Shown here one piece after another: positions 1 to 6,326 of a stretch of DNA of 6,326 nucleotides. Both the position numbers and the translations under genes were made by a program. The stretch is from Breznakia blatticola (GTDB lineage: Bacteria > Bacillota_I > Bacilli_A > Erysipelotrichales > Erysipelotrichaceae): assembly GCF_004365815.1 (NCBI RefSeq), contig NZ_SODD01000070.1, positions 1 to 6,326 on the forward strand. Direction: 5' to 3'. Under the pieces are notes generated by a model, which was not told the origin of the DNA, did not search any database, and saw nothing but the letters and a program-made list of their open reading frames with translations. Position 1 is the first letter of the stretch; every line of letters begins with the position of its first letter.

Positions 1-141
1 ACCTTCCTTATTTTTATATGGTAATCTTACATTTCAATGTATCATCATACATGTAACAATCTAAGTTAGGTGCGCATCGGTTGAATTAAGCCAAATTATT
101 TTAACTTTTATTATTCTTTTTCACAATTACAGAATATTGAA

Positions 142-178
142 ATAGGGTAGAGGGAAAGTAATTTCTTTCGCCCCTCCC
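142..178 (-). ncRNA. Group II intron domain VI with bulged branch-point adenosine, and the 3' splice site
   Basis: Minus strand reads GGGAGGGGCGAAAGAAAUUACUUUCCCUCUACCCUAU. GGG pairs with CCC, and AGGGG pairs with CCUCU across a single bulged A (complement of T148). The inner helix GAAAG/CUUUC follows. The bulged A is 7 nt from the proposed intron end ...UAU at 142. Confidence 0.7.
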
Positions 179-181
179 GTT

Positions 182-213
182 GCACCGTACGTACGGTTCT
201 TGTATACGACGCT
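182..213 (-). ncRNA. Group II intron domain V (catalytic hairpin, shortened IIC-like form)
   Basis: Minus strand reads AGCGUCGUAUACAAGAACCGUACGUACGGUGC. A 9-bp lower helix forms between GCGUCGUAU and GUACGGUGC. There is a 2-nt AC bulge on the 3' strand, as in canonical DV, and a short upper helix with its loop. The AGC triad sits at the 5' end. The hairpin lies directly upstream of domain VI. Confidence 0.7.
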
Positions 214-232
214 ACATATGTATTAATCACGA

Positions 233-1525
233 CTATCTCAGATAGTACTGAAGAGGATTGACCAACCCTGGTCGATCCTTTTGCTTTACTGCTAGAATTG
301 TTGGATTTAGAATGAAGTTCACCACATCCATTCCACATCTTCGATACCAACCTAACCTTGAGTTTGCAACCTTAAAAATGTCTTCATGTTTGAAACTAAA
401 GCGTTGTACTCGGTTTAATCTTTGTAGATTTATATAGATTCGTTTTGGTATCTTCCATTGCTTTATGATTATGACTCTTATCTTGTGTCGTAACCATCCT
501 CCAAATTCCTCAAGAAACGTTTTCATACTTCCAATGCGAAAGTAGTTTATCCATCCCCTTACGATTTGATTTACTCTAGTAAATGTGATTGCTAATGGTT
601 TTGATGCTGCATGTTTTCTAAGGAGTACTTCCTTTAGTTTTGCATATAGATTTGCTTTCCTATCATTGGTAGGTTTGCATTTCCATTTTGGACCATTTTT
701 GAAAAACGTAAATCCTAGAAATTGACTTCTTGTTGGTCTTACGATTTTCGTTTTCCTTGCGTTCACTTTCAAGAATAACTTTCTTTCTAGCCACGATGTG
801 ATTGACTTCATTACTCTATTTGCTGCCATTTCACTCTTTACGAATATGTTACAGTCATCGGCATATCTTACGAATCGCAAACCTCTTTCTTCCAGTTCCT
901 TATCAAATGCATCTAAATAGATATTTGATAGGACTGGACTTAAAGGACCACCTTGTGGTACTCCTTCGTGGCTTGGACTTGTTAGCCCTTTTTCCATGAT
1001 TCCTGCACGCAAGAATGAACGTATCAAATGTAGTACTTCTTTTTCATTCACTCGCTCTCTAAGTTTTGAGATTAATTTATCATGATTTACTTTGTCAAAA
1101 TACTTTTCAATATCCATGTCTATGACCCATTCGTACCCTTCATTGAGATATTCAAGTACATTCTCCATAGCGTCATGTGCACTTCTTCCTGGACGAAAAC
1201 CGAAACTATGCTCGCTAAAACATGGTTCATAGATTTCACTTAGTTTTTGTGCAACTGCTTGTTGAATAACTCTATCTACTACTGTAGGTATTCCTAATGG
1301 TCTTTGCTTACCATTTGCTTTTGGTATATAGACTCTTCTTACTGGCATCGGCTGATATTTCATCTGTATAACGGATTTGATAATCTCTTTTCCATTTTCA
1401 TTAAAATATCCATCAATTTCACTCACTGTCATCTTGTCGATTCCTGGTGCGCCTTTGTTACTTTTGACTTTCCTGATTGCCTTTTCTACATTTTTGTCAG
1501 TAAACATTTCTTCAATCAATCTCAT
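233..1525 (-). CDS. Group II intron-encoded reverse transcriptase/maturase (RT domains 0-7 plus X/thumb; no HNH endonuclease domain)
   Basis: 430-aa ORF. Motifs seen: NKGAPGIDKMT (RT0/1), RRVYIPKANGKQRPLGIPTVVDRVIQQA (RT2), FGFRPGRSAHDA (RT3), GVPQGGPLSPVLSNIYL (RT4), FVRYADDCNIF (RT5, YADD catalytic box), FLGFTF (RT7), RGWINYF (maturase X motif). The C-terminus has no Cys/His HNH motifs. SD GGAGG (1534..1538) lies 8 nt upstream of the ATG at 1525. Confidence 0.95.
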   Translation of the reverse strand: MRLIEEMFTDKNVEKAIRKVKSNKGAPGIDKMTVSEIDGYFNENGKEIIKSVIQMKYQPMPVRRVYIPKANGKQRPLGIPTVVDRVIQQAVAQKLSEIYEPCFSEHSFGFRPGRSAHDAMENVLEYLNEGYEWVIDMDIEKYFDKVNHDKLISKLRERVNEKEVLHLIRSFLRAGIMEKGLTSPSHEGVPQGGPLSPVLSNIYLDAFDKELEERGLRFVRYADDCNIFVKSEMAANRVMKSITSWLERKLFLKVNARKTKIVRPTRSQFLGFTFFKNGPKWKCKPTNDRKANLYAKLKEVLLRKHAASKPLAITFTRVNQIVRGWINYFRIGSMKTFLEEFGGWLRHKIRVIIIKQWKIPKRIYINLQRLNRVQRFSFKHEDIFKVANSRLGWYRRCGMDVVNFILNPTILAVKQKDRPGLVNPLQYYLR

Positions 1526-2062
1526 TCGCTGTTCCTCCTCTACTTGTAGATATATTCAAAATCATCCCCGTTACCTTTCCAATCAATGATTACGTTTCAC
1601 TGCTCTTTGGTATCCTCATTTTCGGACTATTTGAATATTGCTCATAGTGATTCACACTATACATACATTAGGTCCTTCATTGTCTAGGCTTGATAACTAC
1701 TATGACCTCAGCTGACTTCTTACGGTAAACCTTTTTCGATCGGCCCGTTTAACGATTACTGTATTAAAGCGCTCGTGCTTATCCGTCCGTAAGACCTCCC
1801 AGGGTAAGATACATATCTTTTTCACTTTCACAACCTCTTGATTTACTGTCTTGGTTTACGTTTACCCTTTGGACTTCGGTTTGTTAGGCACCCTCATCCA
1901 CCATTTAGCCTTATATCAAGTTTCTGTTCGTAGGCTCGAAAGACTTGCTACACCACTTCCTTCACCCCGTCGTCACCGACTTCGGCTTGTGGTTCACTAC
2001 GCTTAGCGGTAACACTTGCGGTTGGACTTTCACCAACTAGATATGTACCATGCCTGGCACAC
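1526..2062 (-). ncRNA. Group II intron ribozyme 5' segment (domains I-III and proximal domain IV)
   Basis: About 537 nt of non-coding, relatively GC-richer sequence between the GUGUG 5' end and the IEP start. It contains helices capped by GNRA-type tetraloops, e.g. TTGGTGAAAGTCCAAC. It also contains CCTAA (complement of 1884..1888), which is complementary to the 5'-exon end UUAGG and is a candidate EBS1. Individual domain boundaries were not resolved by eye. Confidence 0.75.
1534..1538 (-). promoter_or_regulatory. Shine-Dalgarno sequence of the intron-encoded protein (within domain IV)
   Basis: GAGGAGGAACAGCGA-ATG on the minus strand. Confidence 0.7.
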
Positions 2063-2068
2063 CCTAAA

Positions 2069-2101
2069 AAAGGAACTTATAAGCGCTACATAAGTTCCTT
2101 T
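2069..2101 (-). terminator. Terminator-like stem-loop that forms the IIC intron insertion-site motif
   Basis: Minus strand reads AAAGGAACUUAU-GUAGCGCUU-AUAAGUUCCUUU, a 12-bp perfect stem with a 9-nt loop. It is followed by UUUAGG and then the intron 5' GUGUG at 2062. Class C introns characteristically home just downstream of such structures. Confidence 0.7.
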
Positions 2102-2167
2102 AATTATCCTAATAATCTAATATCTTAGTGTGTGTGTTTAATAAGGAATGAATAGATTTTAGGGAAT

Positions 2168-2213
2168 GAGAGGGTGAATTATTAAGAATTGCATGCCTTC
2201 TTAAACACCTCTC
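2168..2213. repeat. Imperfect nested inverted repeat (potential ~46-nt RNA/DNA hairpin) in the inter-terminator spacer
   Basis: Plus strand: outer arms GAGAGGGTG (2168..2176) and ACACCTCTC (2205..2213), pairing with a one-base bulge. The inner perfect arms are TTAAGAA (2182..2188) and TTCTTAA (2198..2204). The loop contains the palindrome GCATGC. Confidence 0.5.
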
Positions 2214-2252
2214 AGTAATAGGAGTATTACGCACACAAAAGGTTGGATAAAT

Positions 2253-2281: not shown

Positions 2282-4699
2282 TTATTTACTGTATTTCTTT
2301 CTTCTGAAGAAAATAAATAATGCTGTTAATGATGATAAACCAACAAGAATAAACAATGTTGAAACATTTGTAGAATCTCCAGTTTGTACAACAGCAAATG
2401 TTTCTGTATTTTCTCCAGTAAATACTGGTTCTTTACTTGCTAGATTTGTTGGGGTTTCATTATCTTTTATTGGTGGTTTACTATGTGTTTTTGGTTCAAC
2501 TTTCTCAACATCTTTTTCCCATTTTGCATAAAGTGTTACAGGTTCAGCATATGTTGAAGGAATTGATGTAATTTCGTTTTTGAATTCAGCATCACTATGC
2601 CATCCTTTAAATGTATAACCTATTTTTGTTGGTTCTTTGAATGATTCGACTCCTGTACCAAAGGCATACTCATTTGGATTCGCTTCCGCATTTATTCCTC
2701 CATCTATATTATATTTAATTGGATATTGATTAGGAGTCCATTTTGCAACAAAAGTGATTGTTCTTCCTGCCATTTCATGAATACTTAATCCTTTTTTTTC
2801 TGCATACTCGTACGGCTTCATTGAATCAAAATCCCATAACTCACCATCTGACCATTCCCATCCAACAAATGTATAACCATACTTTGTTGGGCTTGCAACT
2901 TTTGTTACATTTGTAGCTTGATTTATTCTTTGATTAGAAATAGTCGAACTCACTTCACCACCATTTGCGTCAAAATGAACATCAATCAAATATTCCCATT
3001 GATATGTATCTGGAATAGACCCATCATATTGACCCATAAACTCATCAGAAGAACTATATATATTACCTGTAGTTAAACCTACCCATTTTCCTGTAATTGC
3101 ATCACTTGTCAAAACAGCCGAAAGCCAACTATTTTTTTCAATAAATCTTGTTTTCTCATTTAATTTAATTGTATGAAGATTATTATCAGAAAGAAACATG
3201 TAGGACATTTCTTTTGCATTTTTTGTATTAAATCCCGATAAGTCTAAGTGTGTTAAACTATGGCATGCGCTAAACATAGCATACATTTTTTTTACATTTT
3301 CTGTATTAAATCCCGATAAGTCTAGATATGTTAAGCTACTACACTTTTCAAACATAAAGGACATTTCTGTTACATTTTTTGTATTAAATCCTGATAAGTC
3401 TAAGTGTGTTAAACTATTGCATTCGCTAAACATAGCATACATATTTGTTACGTTTTCTGTATTCCATTCAGATACGTTCAAGTTTGTTAAACTATGGCAT
3501 TCGCTAAACATACCAAACATATTTGTTACATTTTCTGTATTCCATTTAGATGTGTCCAAGTTTGTTAAACCACTGCACCCTTTAAACATACAATCCATAT
3601 CTGTTACATTTTCTGTATTAAATCCCGATACATCTAAGTAATTTAAGCTACTGCATCCACTAAACATGCTCCTCATATTTGTTACACTATCTGTATCTAA
3701 CCCCAATACATTTAAGTCCGTTAAACTTCTGCACCCACCAAACATACTTGTCATAGTTGTAACACTTTTTGAATTCCATTCGGATATATCCAAGTTAGTT
3801 AAACCGTTGCACCCATTATACATAAAAGACATATCTGTTACATTTTCTGTATTCCATTCGGATACGTCCAAATTTGTTAAACTTTTGCAATTATGAAACA
3901 TAACATACATATTTGTTACATTTTTTGTATTCCATTTAGATACGTCCAAATTCGTTAAACTATTGCATCCTTGAAACATAGCAGACATATCTGTTACATT
4001 TTTTGTATTCCATTTAGATACGTCCAAATTTGTTAAACTATCGCATCCTTGAAACATAGCAGACATATCTATTACATTTTCTGTATCCCAATTAGATACA
4101 TCTATCAAAGTTAACTTACCACATAGAGAAAACATTCCACTAAGATTTATATTTTCACCATTAAAAGTGAAATGTTCAGCTCCTTCTACAATTTCTAAAG
4201 TATTGTAGTTTCGAAACATGTTATATCCATTTTGGATATTTACAGGACCTTCAACTTTTATCTTTTTTACTTTATTACTATAAATTGAAAAGTTGGAAGG
4301 TGATCCCAAATTCTCACTTCTTGCTTTTAACTCTCCACTCCCTAGCACCAGCTCACCATCATCATACAATACCCAATCAACTCCATGTTTTCCTTTTTTA
4401 GTTATTGTCCGTGTTTCTTCACCAGTTGTTACTGATGTTACAGGTATACTTAACGTTGTTGTAGTAACAGACGTTACAAAAGCAGATTCTTTATCATACT
4501 CTTCTTGTTCTCCATTCTCAGTTACTTCTTCAGAAGTTTCTTCAATTGTTTCTTCTGTTTCTGTAACTTCAACCTCTTCCGTCACTTCTGTAATTTCATC
4601 TGGGTTTTCAACATGTTGTTCTACATTGGTAAACCCTGTCCCAACTAGAAATAAACTACTAATCAAACATATCATAAAATTTCTTTTTGCCTTATTCAT
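2282..4699 (-). CDS. Secreted, probably cell-wall-anchored surface protein with BspA/DUF285-type 26-residue leucine-rich repeats and two Listeria-Bacteroides (Flg_new) repeat domains
   Basis: The long ORF runs 2282..4711. The start at 4699 (MNKAKRNFMICLISSLFLVG...) is preferred because GGAGG (4705..4709) lies 5 nt upstream of it, while the ATG at 4711 overlaps that SD and has none of its own. Order of elements: Sec-type signal peptide, acidic T/E-rich tract, about 13 repeats of consensus MxxMFxxCxSLTxLDVSxWNTxNVTx, then two modules ending GYTFxGW...(I/L)TxxAKW. The C-terminus reads VVQTG, then a hydrophobic segment, then RRKKYSK. Confidence 0.9.
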   Translation of the reverse strand: MNKAKRNFMICLISSLFLVGTGFTNVEQHVENPDEITEVTEEVEVTETEETIEETSEEVTENGEQEEYDKESAFVTSVTTTTLSIPVTSVTTGEETRTITKKGKHGVDWVLYDDGELVLGSGELKARSENLGSPSNFSIYSNKVKKIKVEGPVNIQNGYNMFRNYNTLEIVEGAEHFTFNGENINLSGMFSLCGKLTLIDVSNWDTENVIDMSAMFQGCDSLTNLDVSKWNTKNVTDMSAMFQGCNSLTNLDVSKWNTKNVTNMYVMFHNCKSLTNLDVSEWNTENVTDMSFMYNGCNGLTNLDISEWNSKSVTTMTSMFGGCRSLTDLNVLGLDTDSVTNMRSMFSGCSSLNYLDVSGFNTENVTDMDCMFKGCSGLTNLDTSKWNTENVTNMFGMFSECHSLTNLNVSEWNTENVTNMYAMFSECNSLTHLDLSGFNTKNVTEMSFMFEKCSSLTYLDLSGFNTENVKKMYAMFSACHSLTHLDLSGFNTKNAKEMSYMFLSDNNLHTIKLNEKTRFIEKNSWLSAVLTSDAITGKWVGLTTGNIYSSSDEFMGQYDGSIPDTYQWEYLIDVHFDANGGEVSSTISNQRINQATNVTKVASPTKYGYTFVGWEWSDGELWDFDSMKPYEYAEKKGLSIHEMAGRTITFVAKWTPNQYPIKYNIDGGINAEANPNEYAFGTGVESFKEPTKIGYTFKGWHSDAEFKNEITSIPSTYAEPVTLYAKWEKDVEKVEPKTHSKPPIKDNETPTNLASKEPVFTGENTETFAVVQTGDSTNVSTLFILVGLSSLTALFIFFRRKKYSK
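2285..2392 (-). other. C-terminal cell-wall sorting signal (variant motif VVQTG, hydrophobic helix, basic tail)
   Basis: VVQTG (2378..2392) is followed by DSTNV, then the hydrophobic stretch STLFILVGLSSLTALFIFF, then RRKKYSK and the stop. This is the tripartite architecture of sortase substrates, but the pentapeptide is not LPXTG. Confidence 0.6.
2519..2980 (-). other. Two Listeria-Bacteroides repeat (Flg_new / InlB B-repeat-like) domains
   Basis: First module: VHFDANGGEV...PTKYGYTFVGWEWSDGELWDFD...ITFVAKW. Second module: YPIKYNIDGG...PTKIGYTFKGWHSDAEFKNEI...VTLYAKW. Both match the family signature nGG...GYtFxGWy...itLyAkW. Confidence 0.75.
3161..4147 (-). repeat. Tandem array of about 13 coding repeats of 78 bp (26 aa), DUF285 / 'bacterial surface protein 26-residue repeat' type LRR
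   Basis: The periodicity is visible directly in the DNA, e.g. GCATCC at 3965 and again at 4043. Units 3911..3988 and 3989..4066 are 75/78 identical by manual alignment. The protein consensus is MxxMFxGCxSLTNLDVSxWNTxNVTx. A more degenerate unit may extend the array up to about 4225. Confidence 0.9.
4622..4699 (-). other. N-terminal Sec-type signal peptide of the surface protein
   Basis: MNKAKRNFMICLISSLFLVGTGFTNV has a basic n-region (KAKR) followed by a hydrophobic core. No convincing lipobox: the Cys sits in FMIC context inside the h-region. The cleavage site was not determined. Confidence 0.65.
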
Positions 4700-4704
4700 A
4701 TTTT

Positions 4705-4709
4705 CCTCC
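4705..4709 (-). promoter_or_regulatory. Shine-Dalgarno sequence of the surface-protein gene
   Basis: GGAGG-AAAAT-ATG on the minus strand, with the same 5-nt spacing as at the sigma gene. Confidence 0.6.
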
Positions 4710-4815
4710 ATCTATATTTACACTTTTTCTTTTTCATTTATTCAATTTCCTTTTACTAGATTTACGTAATCCTCTGCATATTACACCTCCACACACATGT
4801 CTATGTTCACCAAAA

Positions 4816-4831
4816 GGAGTTATTTTACTCC
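4816..4831 (-). terminator. Weak hairpin downstream of the sigma-fusion gene (possible leaky terminator)
   Basis: Minus strand reads GGAGU-AAAAUA-ACUCC followed by UUUUGG. The stem is only 5 bp. It is flanked by a direct repeat CCTTTTGG (complements of 4830..4837 and 4810..4817). It is too weak to call a strong terminator, so read-through into the surface-protein gene is plausible. Confidence 0.3.
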
Positions 4832-4849
4832 AAAAGGTTTGATAGTTTC

Positions 4850-6190
4850 TTAAATTTCAAACTTAAATACATTCTCATTTCCTTTTTCATCAACTAATAA
4901 AACCTCTAAGAAACCATTAAATTCACCATATAACTTGTGACTTCCTGGAAGTTTAATTCTTTCCCCATTATGTAGTACATATGATTTACTATAATCAATA
5001 TGATTTTTTGCTTGTTGTATTTCAAAATATATGAAATCATCACTATATTTAACAGATTTTACAGTTGGTATATCATTATCAATACTATTTATATAGAAAA
5101 CTTGTTCATCAGCACCTACTTGGATACTATATTTTCCGTTTTCTTTAGCATAGAAGTATATAAAGTTACTAGAAACAGAGTATTTAAGTTCCTTATCATC
5201 CTTCTTGACATATATTTCATTACTTGCATAGTTATCATATAAATAAATTCGTACCTCAATTGGGCCAGCAATTGGATTTGGATTGAATTTTATACTTTCA
5301 ATATTTTTGTCTAGATTTGGTCGTTTATAAACTGAGATATCTTCAGTTTGCAGCATACAAGTTTTGTTATCTTTTTTAAGTACAGTAGAATCAGATAGAG
5401 ACCATATATTATTAGGATAGAGAAGTTGAGGTAATAGTATCGCGCTAACAGTTAAACAAGCTAAAATTAGACTAAGTTGCTCAATATTACTAATTATATG
5501 AGTTACTGTTTGAACCACACTTTGAATAAATGATGTATCTTTTAATACAACTTCGTTCTCTAAAGTTAATGTAGAATACTCCTTTTGCATCTCAACAAAA
5601 AGAAGGGGTGGCGAGCTGATACTTAAATATTTATCTGGTTTATATCCTTGTTCTTCAAGATCCGCCTTTACAATCTTTCGTATTTCATATATCCGACTTT
5701 TTACTAATGCGGGCTTTATATCTAATGTGTCTGCAATCTCTTGCATTGAAAAGCTACTTAAAAATTTTAACTCTGCCGTTTCTTTATATGTTTCGCTTAG
5801 TTTTTGAAAAGAAGACAGGACAGCATTTAATATGCTTGAATTGGAGAATGCTTTTTCTGGGTCATCAGGAGCAATAACTACATCTTCGATACTGTAATTT
5901 TCATTTGGTTGAATAATCCTATCTTTTGCACGCTGTTTTGCTTTACATTCATTTCCAGCAATAGTAAAAAGCCAAAAATGAAATGAATCTACATTCCGTA
6001 ATTGGTTAATTTTCTCATATACGATTGTTATTGTGTCTTGCACTACTTCTTCAGCATCATGGTGATTCCGAAGAATTGAAAGTGCATAATAAAATAAAGG
6101 ACCTTTATAAAAATTATAGATTTCGTCCAAAGCACTAGTATCCCCATTTTGCAATCTTAAAACAACTGAAACATCAATACGATTATTCAT
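4850..6190 (-). CDS. ECF-type sigma-70 family factor fused to a linker, single TM helix and beta-rich extracytoplasmic C-terminal domain (membrane-tethered sigma / sigma-anti-sigma-like fusion)
   Basis: The ORF runs 4850..6253. The start at 6190 (MNNRIDVSVV...) is preferred because GGAGG (6196..6200) lies 5 nt upstream and a TTGACA -35 box lies inside the longer ORF extension. Region 2 is seen as HHDAEEVVQDTITIVYEKINQLRNVDSFHFWLFTIAGNECKAKQR. Region 4, a helix-turn-helix, is seen as LSETYKETAELKFLSSFSMQEIADTLDIKPALVKSRIYEIRKIVKADL. A ~60-aa linker follows, then the TM segment LSLILACLTVSAILLPQLLY, then ~190 aa rich in short beta-like segments (IEVRIYLYD, IYFYAKENGKYSIQV, FIYFEI, LEVLLVDEKGNENVFKFEI). 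No zf-HC2 (HxxxCxxC) anti-sigma motif was seen. Confidence 0.85.
   Translation of the reverse strand: MNNRIDVSVVLRLQNGDTSALDEIYNFYKGPLFYYALSILRNHHDAEEVVQDTITIVYEKINQLRNVDSFHFWLFTIAGNECKAKQRAKDRIIQPNENYSIEDVVIAPDDPEKAFSNSSILNAVLSSFQKLSETYKETAELKFLSSFSMQEIADTLDIKPALVKSRIYEIRKIVKADLEEQGYKPDKYLSISSPPLLFVEMQKEYSTLTLENEVVLKDTSFIQSVVQTVTHIISNIEQLSLILACLTVSAILLPQLLYPNNIWSLSDSTVLKKDNKTCMLQTEDISVYKRPNLDKNIESIKFNPNPIAGPIEVRIYLYDNYASNEIYVKKDDKELKYSVSSNFIYFYAKENGKYSIQVGADEQVFYINSIDNDIPTVKSVKYSDDFIYFEIQQAKNHIDYSKSYVLHNGERIKLPGSHKLYGEFNGFLEVLLVDEKGNENVFKFEI
5417..5476 (-). other. Predicted single transmembrane helix of the sigma-fusion protein
   Basis: LSLILACLTVSAILLPQLLY is about 20 mostly hydrophobic residues and the only such stretch in the protein. 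It separates the cytoplasmic sigma module from the C-terminal domain. Confidence 0.7.
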
Positions 6191-6195
6191 TTTTT

Positions 6196-6200
6196 CCTCC
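6196..6200 (-). promoter_or_regulatory. Shine-Dalgarno sequence of the sigma-fusion gene
   Basis: GGAGG-AAAAA-ATG on the minus strand. Confidence 0.7.
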
Positions 6201-6223
6201 ACATACACACACATTTGTTCTTT

Positions 6224-6253
6224 TACATAAGAAGACAAACTATCATATGTCAA
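6224..6253 (-). promoter_or_regulatory. Candidate housekeeping-sigma promoter for the sigma-fusion gene
   Basis: On the minus strand, TTGACA (complement of 6248..6253) is followed by an 18-nt spacer and TATGTA (complement of 6224..6229). This sits about 35 nt upstream of the preferred ATG at 6190. The -35 box is perfect. The -10 box matches only 3/6. Confidence 0.4.
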
Positions 6254-6326
6254 GTAAAGAATGATATTGGCATATAAATAGGTGATTGTCTTAGTTTAGA
6301 GGTGAATCCTCTATAAAAACTTCAAT

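Follow-up and report, generated by a model that had tools for sequence, protein, structure and literature searches.

A membrane-anchored, single-polypeptide ECF sigma factor that is probably the regulator of an adjoining surface adhesin gene

In the window, i.e., the 6,326 nucleotides of Breznakia blatticola DNA analyzed here, an ECF sigma factor, a transmembrane (TM) helix and an extracytoplasmic domain of this gut bacterium are encoded as one polypeptide, and a gene for a sortase-anchored surface protein follows directly on that strand. Our favored interpretation, to which we give somewhat better than even weight, is that the two genes form a "sigma plus adhesin" cassette, in which the membrane-anchored sigma factor is the regulator and is released by proteolysis. 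The single chain runs from a SigW-like ECF sigma module (residues 1-180) through a conserved post-sigma4 segment (181-212) and a hydrophobic helix (239-257) to two Ig-like β sandwiches (297-446). The features of the fused gene, with the evidence for each, are:

4850..6190, minus strand: complete ORF for the fused ECF sigma/TM/tandem-Ig protein (ORF list, identity match)
6196..6200, minus strand: Shine-Dalgarno sequence GGAGG, 5 nt from the ATG at 6190 (read off the sequence)
5915..6190, minus strand: sigma region 2 domain, residues 1-92 (Pfam Sigma70_r2 at 28-91, conservation, model)
5651..5833, minus strand: sigma region 4 HTH domain, residues 120-180 (Pfam Sigma70_r4_2 at 123-172, NCBIfam, model)
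5555..5650, minus strand: conserved post-sigma4 segment, residues 181-212 (column conservation, model)
5420..5476, minus strand: single TM helix, residues 239-257, LSLILACLTVSAILLPQLL (Kyte-Doolittle)
5303..5419, minus strand: juxtamembrane spacer, residues 258-296, poorly conserved and of low model confidence (model, conservation)
5081..5302, minus strand: extracytoplasmic Ig-like domain 1, residues 297-370, with a conserved N-G-x-Y (model, Foldseek, conservation)
4853..5080, minus strand: extracytoplasmic Ig-like domain 2, residues 371-446 (profile search, model, conservation)

The first-pass annotation had reported an uninterrupted frame of 446 residues without stating its strand. That frame is unbroken, encodes 446 amino acids plus a stop, lies on the minus strand, and specifies a product identical to a B. 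blatticola protein annotated "RNA polymerase sigma factor." Because all homologues begin with the same N-terminus, MN(K/N)RID, a 467-residue version of the ORF starting at a TTG is unlikely. A second copy of a group II intron at the contig end, upstream of the sigma gene, was considered and rejected, as there was no supporting repeat.

Sigma region 2 and a region 4 HTH, both recognized by eye in the earlier reading, were borne out by HMM matches from Pfam and NCBIfam. Sigma70_r2 (PF04542) matched residues 28-91 with E = 1.4e-10 and 41 bits (cut-off 24). The match of Sigma70_r4_2 (PF08281) to residues 123-172 had E = 1.1e-5 and 25.4 bits, i.e., 0.3 bit under the cut-off of 25.7, and relatives of the protein scored up to 62 bits with this model, well over the cut-off. 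Two ECF models were also matched, Sigma70_ECF with 24.6 bits (cut-off 21.1) and TIGR02937 (sigma70-ECF) with 73.4 bits over residues 20-175 (cut-off 42.9). Pfam gave no matches to Sigma70_r1 or Sigma70_r3 in the window protein, and the linker between sigma2 and sigma4 is short in the structure model (approximately residues 93-119). With region 2, region 4 and a short linker lacking regions 1.1 and 3, the protein has the domain make-up of an ECF (group 4) sigma-70 factor. The region 2 motifs DAEEVVQ and F..WL..IA.N are kept and, across 76 sequences, W73 is invariant, while A46, Q51, L64, F70, L141, E151 and I152 are nearly so. When the family profile was searched against PDB sequences, B. subtilis SigW was matched with E = 7e-50 over residues 6-180, region 4 included, and there was no match past residue 185. 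Scores against the SigW equivalogs NF007223 and TIGR02948 were 77.3 bits (cut-off 209) and 61.9 bits (cut-off 243), respectively; since both cut-offs are missed, the window protein is not a SigW orthologue.

The first-pass annotation took the long frame for a genuine fusion, and the family upholds this. Seven close homologues (40-86% identity, 431-464 residues) have the same order of sigma, TM and ectodomain parts, and an exhaustive profile search, which was the informative one, extended this architecture to some 75 more distant cluster representatives, all of them full length (412-479 residues). All representatives with a named organism are from Erysipelotrichales; the family spans several genera, and B. 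blatticola itself has at least four paralogues. A search with the close C-terminal alignment found Erysipelotrichaceae MTC7 as its sole match among representative genomes, a C-terminal profile search found at least six proteins, and an exact-sequence look-up of two members (P0003 and P0007) returned no contig match. Naturally split versions were sought among shorter matches, and the five candidates (P0044, P0069, P0045, P0050 and P0079) were set aside as indistinguishable from truncated gene calls. Comparison with the 86%-identical orthologue gave an overall dN/dS of 0.17, with 0.06 in the sigma part and 0.19 in the ectodomain; values for individual segments ranged from 0.06 to 0.48, and purifying selection thus acts throughout. 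Constraint is strongest on the sigma part, which has the lowest dN/dS and the highest column conservation.

Between the sigma module and the membrane, a linker of some 60 residues had been described; it measures 57 (residues 182-238) and contains no cysteine, so that the HxxxCxxC zinc motif is absent, again as claimed. These approximately 57 cytoplasmic residues are fewer than in a class I anti-sigma domain, and zf-HC2, FecR, RskA, DUF4179 and other anti-sigma Pfam domains were matched neither in the window protein nor in 25 relatives; both points count against our favored interpretation. From the end of sigma4 to the ectodomain, conservation is confined to the post-sigma4 motif, G-Y-x-P-x-K-Y-x-S-x4-P-x-L, after which comes a helix at 194-212. 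Conservation there is 2.05 bits per column, compared with 0.4-1.2 in the next 90 residues, and the pLDDT, about 30 at first, reached 77-85 when the deep alignment was used. We regard residues 181-212 as a candidate built-in sigma-restraining (anti-sigma-like) element.

The prediction of a single TM helix also held up: on topology, which was assessed from hydropathy only, a Kyte-Doolittle plot has one peak, at 239-257, with a 19-residue mean of 2.23 (threshold 1.6), and a hydrophobic peak occupies the equivalent position in eight of eight homologues tested. The model places the helix at 221-252, the TM and juxtamembrane parts having pLDDT values below 50. The juxtamembrane spacer (258-296) is a possible region for site-1 cleavage. 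The first-pass annotation had named a split ORF, a lack of sigma HMM matches and a lack of a TM helix as grounds for rejecting its proposal; the ORF is whole, the sigma HMMs match and one helix is predicted. Its idea of a membrane-tethered, one-component sigma device fits all of the evidence.

An ectodomain of about 190 residues had been proposed, of no family recognizable by eye; it comprises 189 (258-446), and among the C-terminal halves (from residue 182) of 25 members there was no consistent Pfam family at E ≤ 1. The fold, however, can be recognized, because AlphaFold and Foldseek make it a tandem Ig-like structure: residues 297-446 are modeled as two β sandwiches with block-mean pLDDT values of 91-97. 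Domain 2 has N-I-D-x-x-x-P at its start and IDYxKSY and LYDxxGN inside, and is weakly related to a repeat of giant surface proteins that also bear DUF7743/Big_13. Foldseek matches of the ectodomain were to generic tandem Ig/FnIII proteins (myomesin, nectin-like, Dscam and intimin) and therefore say nothing about its ligand.

The AlphaFold model used throughout was built from 76 sequences. It replaced one built from the 7 close homologues, which was discarded because it had a pLDDT of 61 and left sigma4 and the linker uninterpretable. In the model, region 2 has pLDDT values above 93 and a TM-score of 0.85 to SigE region 2 structures, and the structural matches of the sigma module are SigW, SigE, AlgU and CnrH. 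The arrangement of sigma2 and sigma4 is compact, and superposes on the anti-sigma-bound forms CnrH-CnrY (TM-score 0.76), SigW-RsiW (0.72) and EcfG-NepR (0.70) but not on RNA polymerase-bound ECF forms (0.30-0.44, with an rmsd of 21-27 Å), bearing in mind that AlphaFold tends to give compact isolated ECFs anyway. Together with the conserved post-sigma4 segment, the compact model hints that the sigma module may be self-inhibited.

The elements downstream of the sigma gene are:

4814..4840, minus strand: promoter-like motif AAACCTTTT-N13-TCCTT in the sigma-adhesin gap (pattern scan, orthologous gaps)
2282..4711, minus strand: surface-protein gene, 809 residues, presumed sigma target (Pfam, NCBIfam, sequence)
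2219..2245, minus strand: second promoter-like motif, CAACCTTTT-N13-TCCTA, right after the adhesin terminator at 2250-2279 (pattern scan)
2066..2212, minus strand: terminator-bounded unit of about 147 nt downstream of the second motif, ending in a hairpin at 2066-2101 (sequence, Rfam, L002)

The adhesin gene lies 138 nt from the sigma gene and encodes a signal peptide, 11 PARCEL/DUF285 LRR-like repeats of 26 residues, 2 Flg_new repeats and a VQTGD-type cell-wall sorting signal. In each of the nine independent loci examined, the sigma gene is followed directly, at a distance of 18-138 nt, by a co-directional gene for a secreted protein; a signal peptide is present in all nine, and a C-terminal sortase-type sorting signal (x-x-T-G/S/N-D) in seven. 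Of the other two, one (L013) has only a hydrophobic tail at its end and the other (L014) is cut by the contig end. LRR, PARCEL, Flg_new or adhesin-like features were found in eight of the nine proteins; the ninth (L016), with no Pfam match on record, shares 43% identity with the adhesin of the window across 493 residues. Passenger domains differ among cassettes (PARCEL, BspA-LRR, other LRR and Flg_new), adhesin subfamilies sharing only the C-terminal sorting region of about 80 residues. Other neighbors vary from locus to locus, and one locus (L015) has two cassettes in tandem. The adhesin gene is probably switched on by its adjoining fused sigma factor. Literature on PARCEL/DUF285 proteins with a sigma factor, and on Breznakia, yielded nothing relevant.

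The most informative feature that we observed is one that the first-pass annotation lacks: a surface-protein gene invariably follows the sigma gene.

A motif resembling an ECF-type promoter, AAC-N18-TCYTW, is located ahead of the adhesin gene; relatives have it ahead of the sigma gene as well. Searched for as two blocks, it was found at two places in the window, both between genes and on the gene strand, where 0.01 occurrences are expected, for a motif defined post hoc from the sequences. The copy in the sigma-adhesin gap is conserved in the orthologous gaps, these copies not being independent of one another. Its -35-like part had 28 same-strand matches in 88.6 kb, 9 of them within the 2.1 kb of sigma-upstream or intergenic DNA. 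The -10 variants are constant within a locus and differ between loci: CTCCTW is present three times in the window and L002, ATATCTAAC twice in L016, CTTATCTAWG twice in L008, and GTCTTATATA twice in L011. Locus-specific variants of this kind are as expected for cognate sigma-promoter pairs. Upstream of the window's own sigma gene there is no AAC -35 element, TAC being found instead, and homology to the L002 sigma upstream region stops about 48 nt before the ATG. Scanning for the sigma-70 consensus gave 22 sites, compared with 24 in shuffled sequence, and hence no excess. From the sequence pattern, AAC-N18-TCYTW may be the promoter recognized by the fused sigma factor. The unit of about 147 nt beyond the second motif is 97% identical in L002 and matches no Rfam family; it is a candidate sigma-dependent small transcript.

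In the mechanism that we propose, the SigW-like sigma2-sigma4 module would be kept in the cytoplasm, where residues 181-212 and the tether provided by the TM helix would hold it compact and unable to join RNA polymerase. The Ig-like domains would face the cell wall side and serve as the input. On arrival of a signal, the ectodomain would be trimmed and a RasP/RseP-type intramembrane protease would then cut the TM helix, with RsiW and IutY as parallels; regulated proteolysis, presumed already in the first-pass annotation, is an inference. The freed sigma factor would direct RNA polymerase to AAC-N18-TCYTW promoters ahead of the adjoining sortase-anchored LRR/PARCEL gene, and might also act ahead of the sigma gene itself in relatives and ahead of the small unit past the adhesin gene in the window.

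Several other explanations bear on these data. That a frameshift or assembly error joined a sigma gene to a separate anti-sigma gene might be suspected because the contig is short (6326 bp) and some short matches (e.g., P0044 and P0069) start near the junction. These matches resemble truncated gene calls, however, the junction motif is kept in frame, and the fusion recurs in about 75 divergent representatives, which belong to several genera and were assembled independently; the conserved fusion and the dN/dS values therefore exclude such an artefact for practical purposes. It is also very unlikely, if less extremely so, that the sigma-like module is degenerate and has another membrane function in adhesin export or anchoring. 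A precedent for a sigma mimic exists in PhyR, which carries a sigma-like domain acting in that way, and the window protein scores just below the Pfam cut-off for Sigma70_r4_2 and lacks an equivalog-level NCBIfam match. Against this, the sigma part is under the strongest constraint (dN/dS of 0.06), the ECF region 2 motifs (DAEEVVQ and F..W...I..N) are conserved, relatives reach 62 bits for r4_2, and the cassette comes with a conserved promoter motif of the AAC type.

We consider it improbable that the sigma factor acts while membrane bound and is never released, recruiting RNA polymerase to the membrane in a ToxR/CadC-like manner while the ectodomain changes conformation or oligomeric state. 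An advantage would be that the adhesin could be transcribed, translated and secreted in a coupled fashion. Membrane-proximal transcription is conceivable given a target directly downstream that encodes a secreted protein, no protease site is recognizable, and about 57 residues, partly of low confidence, separate sigma4 from the TM helix. Yet the most conserved part of this linker abuts sigma4 rather than serving as a free spacer, the compact sigma2/sigma4 model is unlike RNA polymerase-bound forms, and the TM-fused or TM-sequestered ECFs studied experimentally in PMC5411451 and PMC8999054 are all released by proteolysis. A tentative variant, less probable than our favored interpretation by a good way, keeps proteolytic release and makes the adhesin the sensor, passing ligand binding or mechanical load to the Ig-like ectodomain, so that each cassette would be a ligand-specific positive-feedback loop. 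The sigma-adhesin adjacency is invariant despite the differing passenger domains, there are several paralogous cassettes per genome, including tandem ones, and in the IutA-IutY parallel the induced receptor is also a signal transmitter (PMC5411451). A plain relation of regulator to target explains the adjacency equally well, however, the contact between ectodomain and adhesin is hypothetical, and across subfamilies the adhesins have only the sorting region in common. Extended to a form of Gram-positive cell-surface signaling, the same proposal would have the adhesin as both output and ligand or force sensor, orthogonal cassettes each inducing their own adhesin upon target engagement in the insect or animal gut, and the sigma factor also driving a small RNA; this is speculative to a similar degree. 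Proteolytic release of a sigma factor that induces its adjoining adhesin thus remains our favored interpretation.

Single-protein sigma switches are already known in general; what is new here is the family in the window and its pairing with an adhesin. The first-pass annotation considered a TM plus ectodomain fusion of this kind to be poorly characterized, which needs qualifying, because TM-bearing single-polypeptide hybrids are documented (IutY, PMC5411451; ECF48/52/53, PMC8999054) and the novelty is less than was implied. The main text of the ECF classification (PMC7826278) has no Firmicutes group with an extension of one TM helix and an ectodomain. ECF41, ECF42 and ECF56 differ in having a soluble SnoaL-like or TPR extension, whereas the window protein has no such Pfam matches and carries a TM helix and an Ig-like fold.

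Among proteins of solved structure, SigW comes nearest to the sigma part (E = 7e-50, TM-score 0.72). SigW, however, is made separately from its anti-sigma factor RsiW, which binds zinc through its anti-sigma domain, spans the membrane once and is removed by PrsW, then RasP, and then Clp. In the SigI-RsgI systems of Clostridium thermocellum, extracellular sensors couple an outside cue to the expression of surface-displayed cellulosomal proteins through proteolysis (PMC10328401, PMC10556640). Several paralogous sigma/anti-sigma modules per genome and a surface-protein output are points of likeness, although SigI is not of the ECF type and is separate from its anti-sigma factor, and the juxtamembrane domain of RsgI undergoes autoproteolysis, while no such domain is detectable in the window protein. 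The actinobacterial groups ECF48, ECF52 and ECF53 (e.g., SCO4117 of Streptomyces coelicolor) combine, like our protein, an ECF sigma factor with a C-terminal TM and extracytoplasmic extension; theirs has TM helices and a large extracytoplasmic part, and proteolytic activation is presumed (PMC8999054, PMC5826349). They differ in having a zinc finger (ZAS-like) and a Pro-rich or carbohydrate-binding ectodomain, whereas the window linker has neither cysteine nor zf-HC2, and both the ectodomain and the phylum are different.

The compact design, with no separate anti-sigma gene, an adjacent target with a candidate promoter and several apparently orthogonal copies, makes this a tractable system. It could be used to address what keeps a sigma factor in check when a canonical anti-sigma domain is missing, and how Erysipelotrichales of the gut choose which surface adhesin to display, and orthogonal sigma-promoter pairs could serve as parts for synthetic biology. 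The nearest parallel is IutY of P. putida (ECF243), a sigma/anti-sigma hybrid with a single TM helix that is released by Prc (site-1) and RseP (site-2) and induces the adjoining surface receptor gene (PMC5411451, PMC8999054). Both proteins have an N-terminal ECF sigma factor, a single TM helix and an extracytoplasmic C-terminal domain in one chain, and both are encoded beside a surface-protein gene. IutY, however, has a FecR-type anti-sigma domain, where the window protein has no FecR match and tandem Ig-like domains instead; and it works in a Gram-negative with a TonB-dependent outer-membrane receptor, as opposed to an Erysipelotrichaceae species, of Gram-positive lineage, with a sortase-anchored LRR adhesin. 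By analogy, the best reading of the window protein is as a Gram-positive analogue of the IutY-type hybrid, a sigma/anti-sigma-like transducer that would induce its adhesin. If the adhesin were in addition the sensor, the principle of cell-surface signaling, known from the outer membranes of Gram-negatives, would apply to sortase-anchored wall proteins as well.

The window spans the whole of a 6326-bp contig from Breznakia blatticola (Erysipelotrichaceae, Bacillota), which carries the sigma-fusion gene. The first-pass annotation placed the ORF correctly but did not state its strand, which is minus. The genes and promoter-like motifs discussed below are:

4850..6190, minus strand: sigma-fusion ORF, 446 aa from ATG
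4814-4840, minus strand: two-block promoter-like motif, copy 1, in the gap ahead of the adhesin gene
2282..4711, minus strand: surface protein (adhesin) gene, 809 aa
2219-2245, minus strand: two-block promoter-like motif, copy 2, directly behind the adhesin terminator
233..1525, minus strand: group II intron reverse transcriptase

A GGAGG Shine-Dalgarno sequence lies 5 nt ahead of the sigma-fusion ATG, and the N-terminus, MN(K/N)RID, is the common start in all homologues. The sigma regions 2 and 4 claimed by the first-pass annotation were both matched by HMMs, i.e., Sigma70_r2 on residues 28-91 (E = 1.4e-10) and Sigma70_r4_2 on residues 123-172 (E = 1.1e-5, 0.3 bit below the cut-off) in Pfam, where Sigma70_ECF was also matched, and TIGR02937 (sigma70-ECF), with a score far over its cut-off, in NCBIfam. 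No NCBIfam equivalog (SigW, SigM, SigV and others) was reached. A profile of 76 family members matched B. subtilis SigW at 7e-50 over residues 6-180, and a search of PDB sequences with it gave no match past residue 185. The sole Kyte-Doolittle peak over threshold, at residues 239-257, corresponds to the single TM helix proposed previously and is equivalently placed in all homologues tested. The sigma domain must lie in the cytoplasm, so the N-terminus is inside and the C-terminal Ig-like pair is on the outer face.

An AlphaFold2 model built with the 76-sequence alignment (mean pLDDT 80.8) had pLDDT values of >92 for sigma2 (1-92) and sigma4 (120-180), 77-85 for residues 181-212, <50 for residues 213-292 (TM helix included), and >90 for two beta-sandwich domains (297-367 and 376-445). 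Foldseek matches to the C-terminal part were generic tandem Ig/FnIII proteins only. In a scan of the C-terminal halves of 25 family members, no Pfam model covered residues 182-446 consistently; the first-pass annotation recognized no family in the ectodomain, but its fold is recognizable as tandem Ig-like. The second beta-sandwich domain, which opens with N-I-D-x-x-x-P, is weakly akin to a repeat of giant surface proteins that also have DUF7743, BiPBP_C and Big_13 domains.

An indexed search returned seven full-length homologues (40-86% identity), and in an exhaustive profile search 103 cluster representatives matched residues 182-446 (82 at E<=1e-10), with about 75 representatives being 412-479 aa in length and carrying the ectodomain C-terminally. 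Sigma70_r2 and r4 preceded the ectodomain in 7/7 representatives sampled, and an end-to-end alignment spans 76 sequences. Named members come from B. blatticola (four paralogues), B. pachnodae, a Coprobacillaceae MAG and Erysipelotrichaceae MTC7. Measured against the 86%-identical orthologue, dN/dS was 0.06 for sigma, 0.48 for linker plus TM, 0.11 for the juxtamembrane segment, and 0.17 and 0.23 for the two Ig domains; since values were 0.06-0.48 in all segments, every part is constrained coding sequence. The family-wide fusion and the dN/dS values bear out the earlier claim of a genuine fusion, and they exclude a frameshift or assembly artefact joining sigma to ectodomain. Column conservation peaks in sigma2 and sigma4, falls in the linker, TM and juxtamembrane segments, and climbs again in the ectodomain; right behind sigma4 is a conserved island, G-Y-x-P-x-K-Y-x-S-x4-P-x-L. 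Some short proteins matching the ectodomain profile (P0045, P0050 and P0079, 198-214 aa; P0044; P0069) begin at a TM helix or precisely where the post-sigma4 motif starts, and may represent either naturally split, anti-sigma-like forms or gene calls that were cut short.

In nine independent loci (window with its orthologous locus L002, L001 with L006, L008, L011, L013, L014, L015 with two cassettes, and L016), the gene next after the sigma fusion encodes a secreted protein, on the same strand and after a gap of 18-138 nt (9/9), while the remaining neighbours vary from locus to locus. All of the downstream proteins have an N-terminal signal peptide, and their features include PARCEL/DUF285 repeats, BspA-type or other LRRs, Flg_new (Listeria-Bacteroides) repeats and adhesin-like domains; that of L016, with no recorded Pfam match, shares 43% identity with the window adhesin across 493 aa. 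At the C-terminus, seven have a sorting-signal-like x-x-T-G/S/N-D followed by a hydrophobic stretch and basic tail, and that of L013 has a hydrophobic tail only; the L014 gene is truncated where its contig stops, and the second gene of L015 extends past the edge of the locus. The window adhesin motif is VQTGD, and the LPXTG-anchor model TIGR01167 scored above its cut-off. Common to the window, L001, L002, L006, L008, L011, L015 and L016 is P-x-F-x-G-E...(V/I)-x-T-G/S/N-D, hydrophobic stretch, basic tail, a non-canonical signal sitting where LPXTG is expected; its sharing suggests that the lineage may have a dedicated sortase specificity. L015 has two cassettes in tandem (4061-5422 and 8515-9870), and P0009, a more remote fused sigma whose ectodomain is of another kind, adjoins Flg_new and lectin proteins. 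The window adhesin gene contains 11 tandem 78-nt (26-aa PARCEL) repeats (3116-4195, minus strand). Between the window and L002 the sigma proteins are 86% identical and the DNA 3' of the adhesin gene 97% identical; the adhesins differ in length (809 vs 660 aa), with a best HSP only 44% identical. The passenger region differs strongly, which points to a fast-evolving or recombining surface antigen.

The gaps between sigma and adhesin genes share ATC(C/A)AAC(C/T/A)TTTT, then (T/A)C(T/C)T(A/T) 18-19 nt past AAC. ECF promoters typically have a -35 that contains AAC, e.g., SigW TGAAAC-N16-CGTA. The motif was set after the sequences had been seen, and copies in orthologous loci do not count as independent; with these limits, the -35 part had 9 matches in 2.1 kb of sigma-upstream/intergenic DNA and 28 same-strand matches in 88.6 kb overall, and the two-block pattern (AAC-N18-TCYTW) occurred twice in the window vs 0.01 expected. 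At each locus, a -10 variant of its own recurs at two or three sites, and the variants are unlike between loci (ATATCTAAC in L016, GTCTTATATA in L011, CTTATCTAWG in L008, CTCCTW in window/L002, GTRTARATA in L015), the pattern that would be expected of co-evolving sigma-promoter pairs. In L011, two motif copies (9176, 9463) lie ahead of the gene for another Flg_new surface protein, of 1122 aa, and suggest a putative regulon of more than one adhesin.

Upstream of the window sigma gene, about 50 nt 5' of the ATG are identical to L002; homology ends ~48-50 nt before the ATG, with unrelated sequence beyond (6238-6326, minus strand). The window reads TAC at the AAC position of the L002 autoregulatory -35, and a sigma-A-like TTGACA-N17-TTATGT overlaps this site; the contig stops 136 nt 5' of the gene. 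The change could reflect recombination at this point or replacement of the promoter. The leader/Shine-Dalgarno regions of the sigma and adhesin genes are 78% alike over 46 nt (4692-4737, 6183-6228). Among the loci compared (L001, L008, L011, L014, L015, L016 and the window), many have a purine-rich GGAGGTG or GGGTAAGTA 8-12 nt 3' of the putative -10, which could be a start-site region or leader element.

Downstream of the adhesin terminator (2250-2279), and bounded at its far end by another terminator (2066-2101), lies a transcription-unit-like element (2066-2245, minus strand), comprising a promoter-like motif copy and ~147 nt conserved with L002. Its RNA fold z is -2.5, no Rfam family or convincing ORF was found in it, and it is a candidate sigma-dependent small RNA. 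Directly behind the 2066-2101 hairpin is inserted a group II intron (1-2065, minus strand), with an RT/maturase ORF (233-1525; TIGR04416, 431 bits) and Rfam group-II-D1D4-3 and D1D4-1 matches at 1672-1736 and 1809-1982; L002 is 97% identical up to the hairpin and lacks the intron. Such terminator targeting is known from bacterial class C introns, to which this intron may belong.

The modelled sigma2/sigma4 superposes on anti-sigma-bound ECFs (TM 0.76 for CnrH-CnrY, 0.72 for SigW-RsiW, 0.70 for EcfG-NepR) and fits RNAP-bound forms poorly (TM 0.30-0.44), a compactness that may stem from training bias. Segment 181-212 was placed confidently only with a deep alignment. We infer that this conserved segment and the membrane tether would keep sigma inactive. 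On activation, the ectodomain would be trimmed, intramembrane cleavage would follow, and a sigma of ~25 kDa would be set free to transcribe the adhesin gene. RsiW is known for the same route of trimming, intramembrane cleavage and sigma release. Such proteolytic activation is proposed by analogy with the IutY hybrid, which is activated by Prc, then RseP (PMC5411451); release by trimming and intramembrane cleavage has also been proposed for ECF48/52/53 (PMC8999054).

Other arrangements can be envisaged. That the adhesin acts as a co-sensor with the sigma-fusion protein seems unlikely, and we give still less credence to a sigma that is active while tethered to the membrane. A sigma module that is a degenerate sigma mimic is the least credible of the three, and very improbable.

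By all testable features the protein belongs to the ECF sigma family, and its sigma core is structurally SigW-like. With 77 bits it stays below the SigW equivalog cut-off of 209. It differs from FecR-type hybrids in lacking the defining FecR domain, and from actinobacterial ZAS-TM fusions in that the defining zinc motif was not found, in agreement with the first-pass annotation. The ECF reclassification (PMC7826278) describes in its main text no group from Firmicutes whose extension consists of one TM segment and an ectodomain; an earlier listing as an unnamed group is possible. The architecture of a one-component, membrane-tethered sigma factor stands, but not the novelty of the concept, the principle being known from IutY and ECF48/52/53. 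What is new is, first, an extension that combines a non-canonical candidate restraining segment with an ectodomain of two Ig domains in tandem; second, the occurrence in Erysipelotrichales; third, an obligatory pairing with genes for surface adhesins, the majority of which bear sortase-type sorting signals; and fourth, the multiple, apparently orthogonal sigma-adhesin cassettes per genome. In function, the nearest counterpart is the IutY/IutA pair, a hybrid system of cell-surface signalling.
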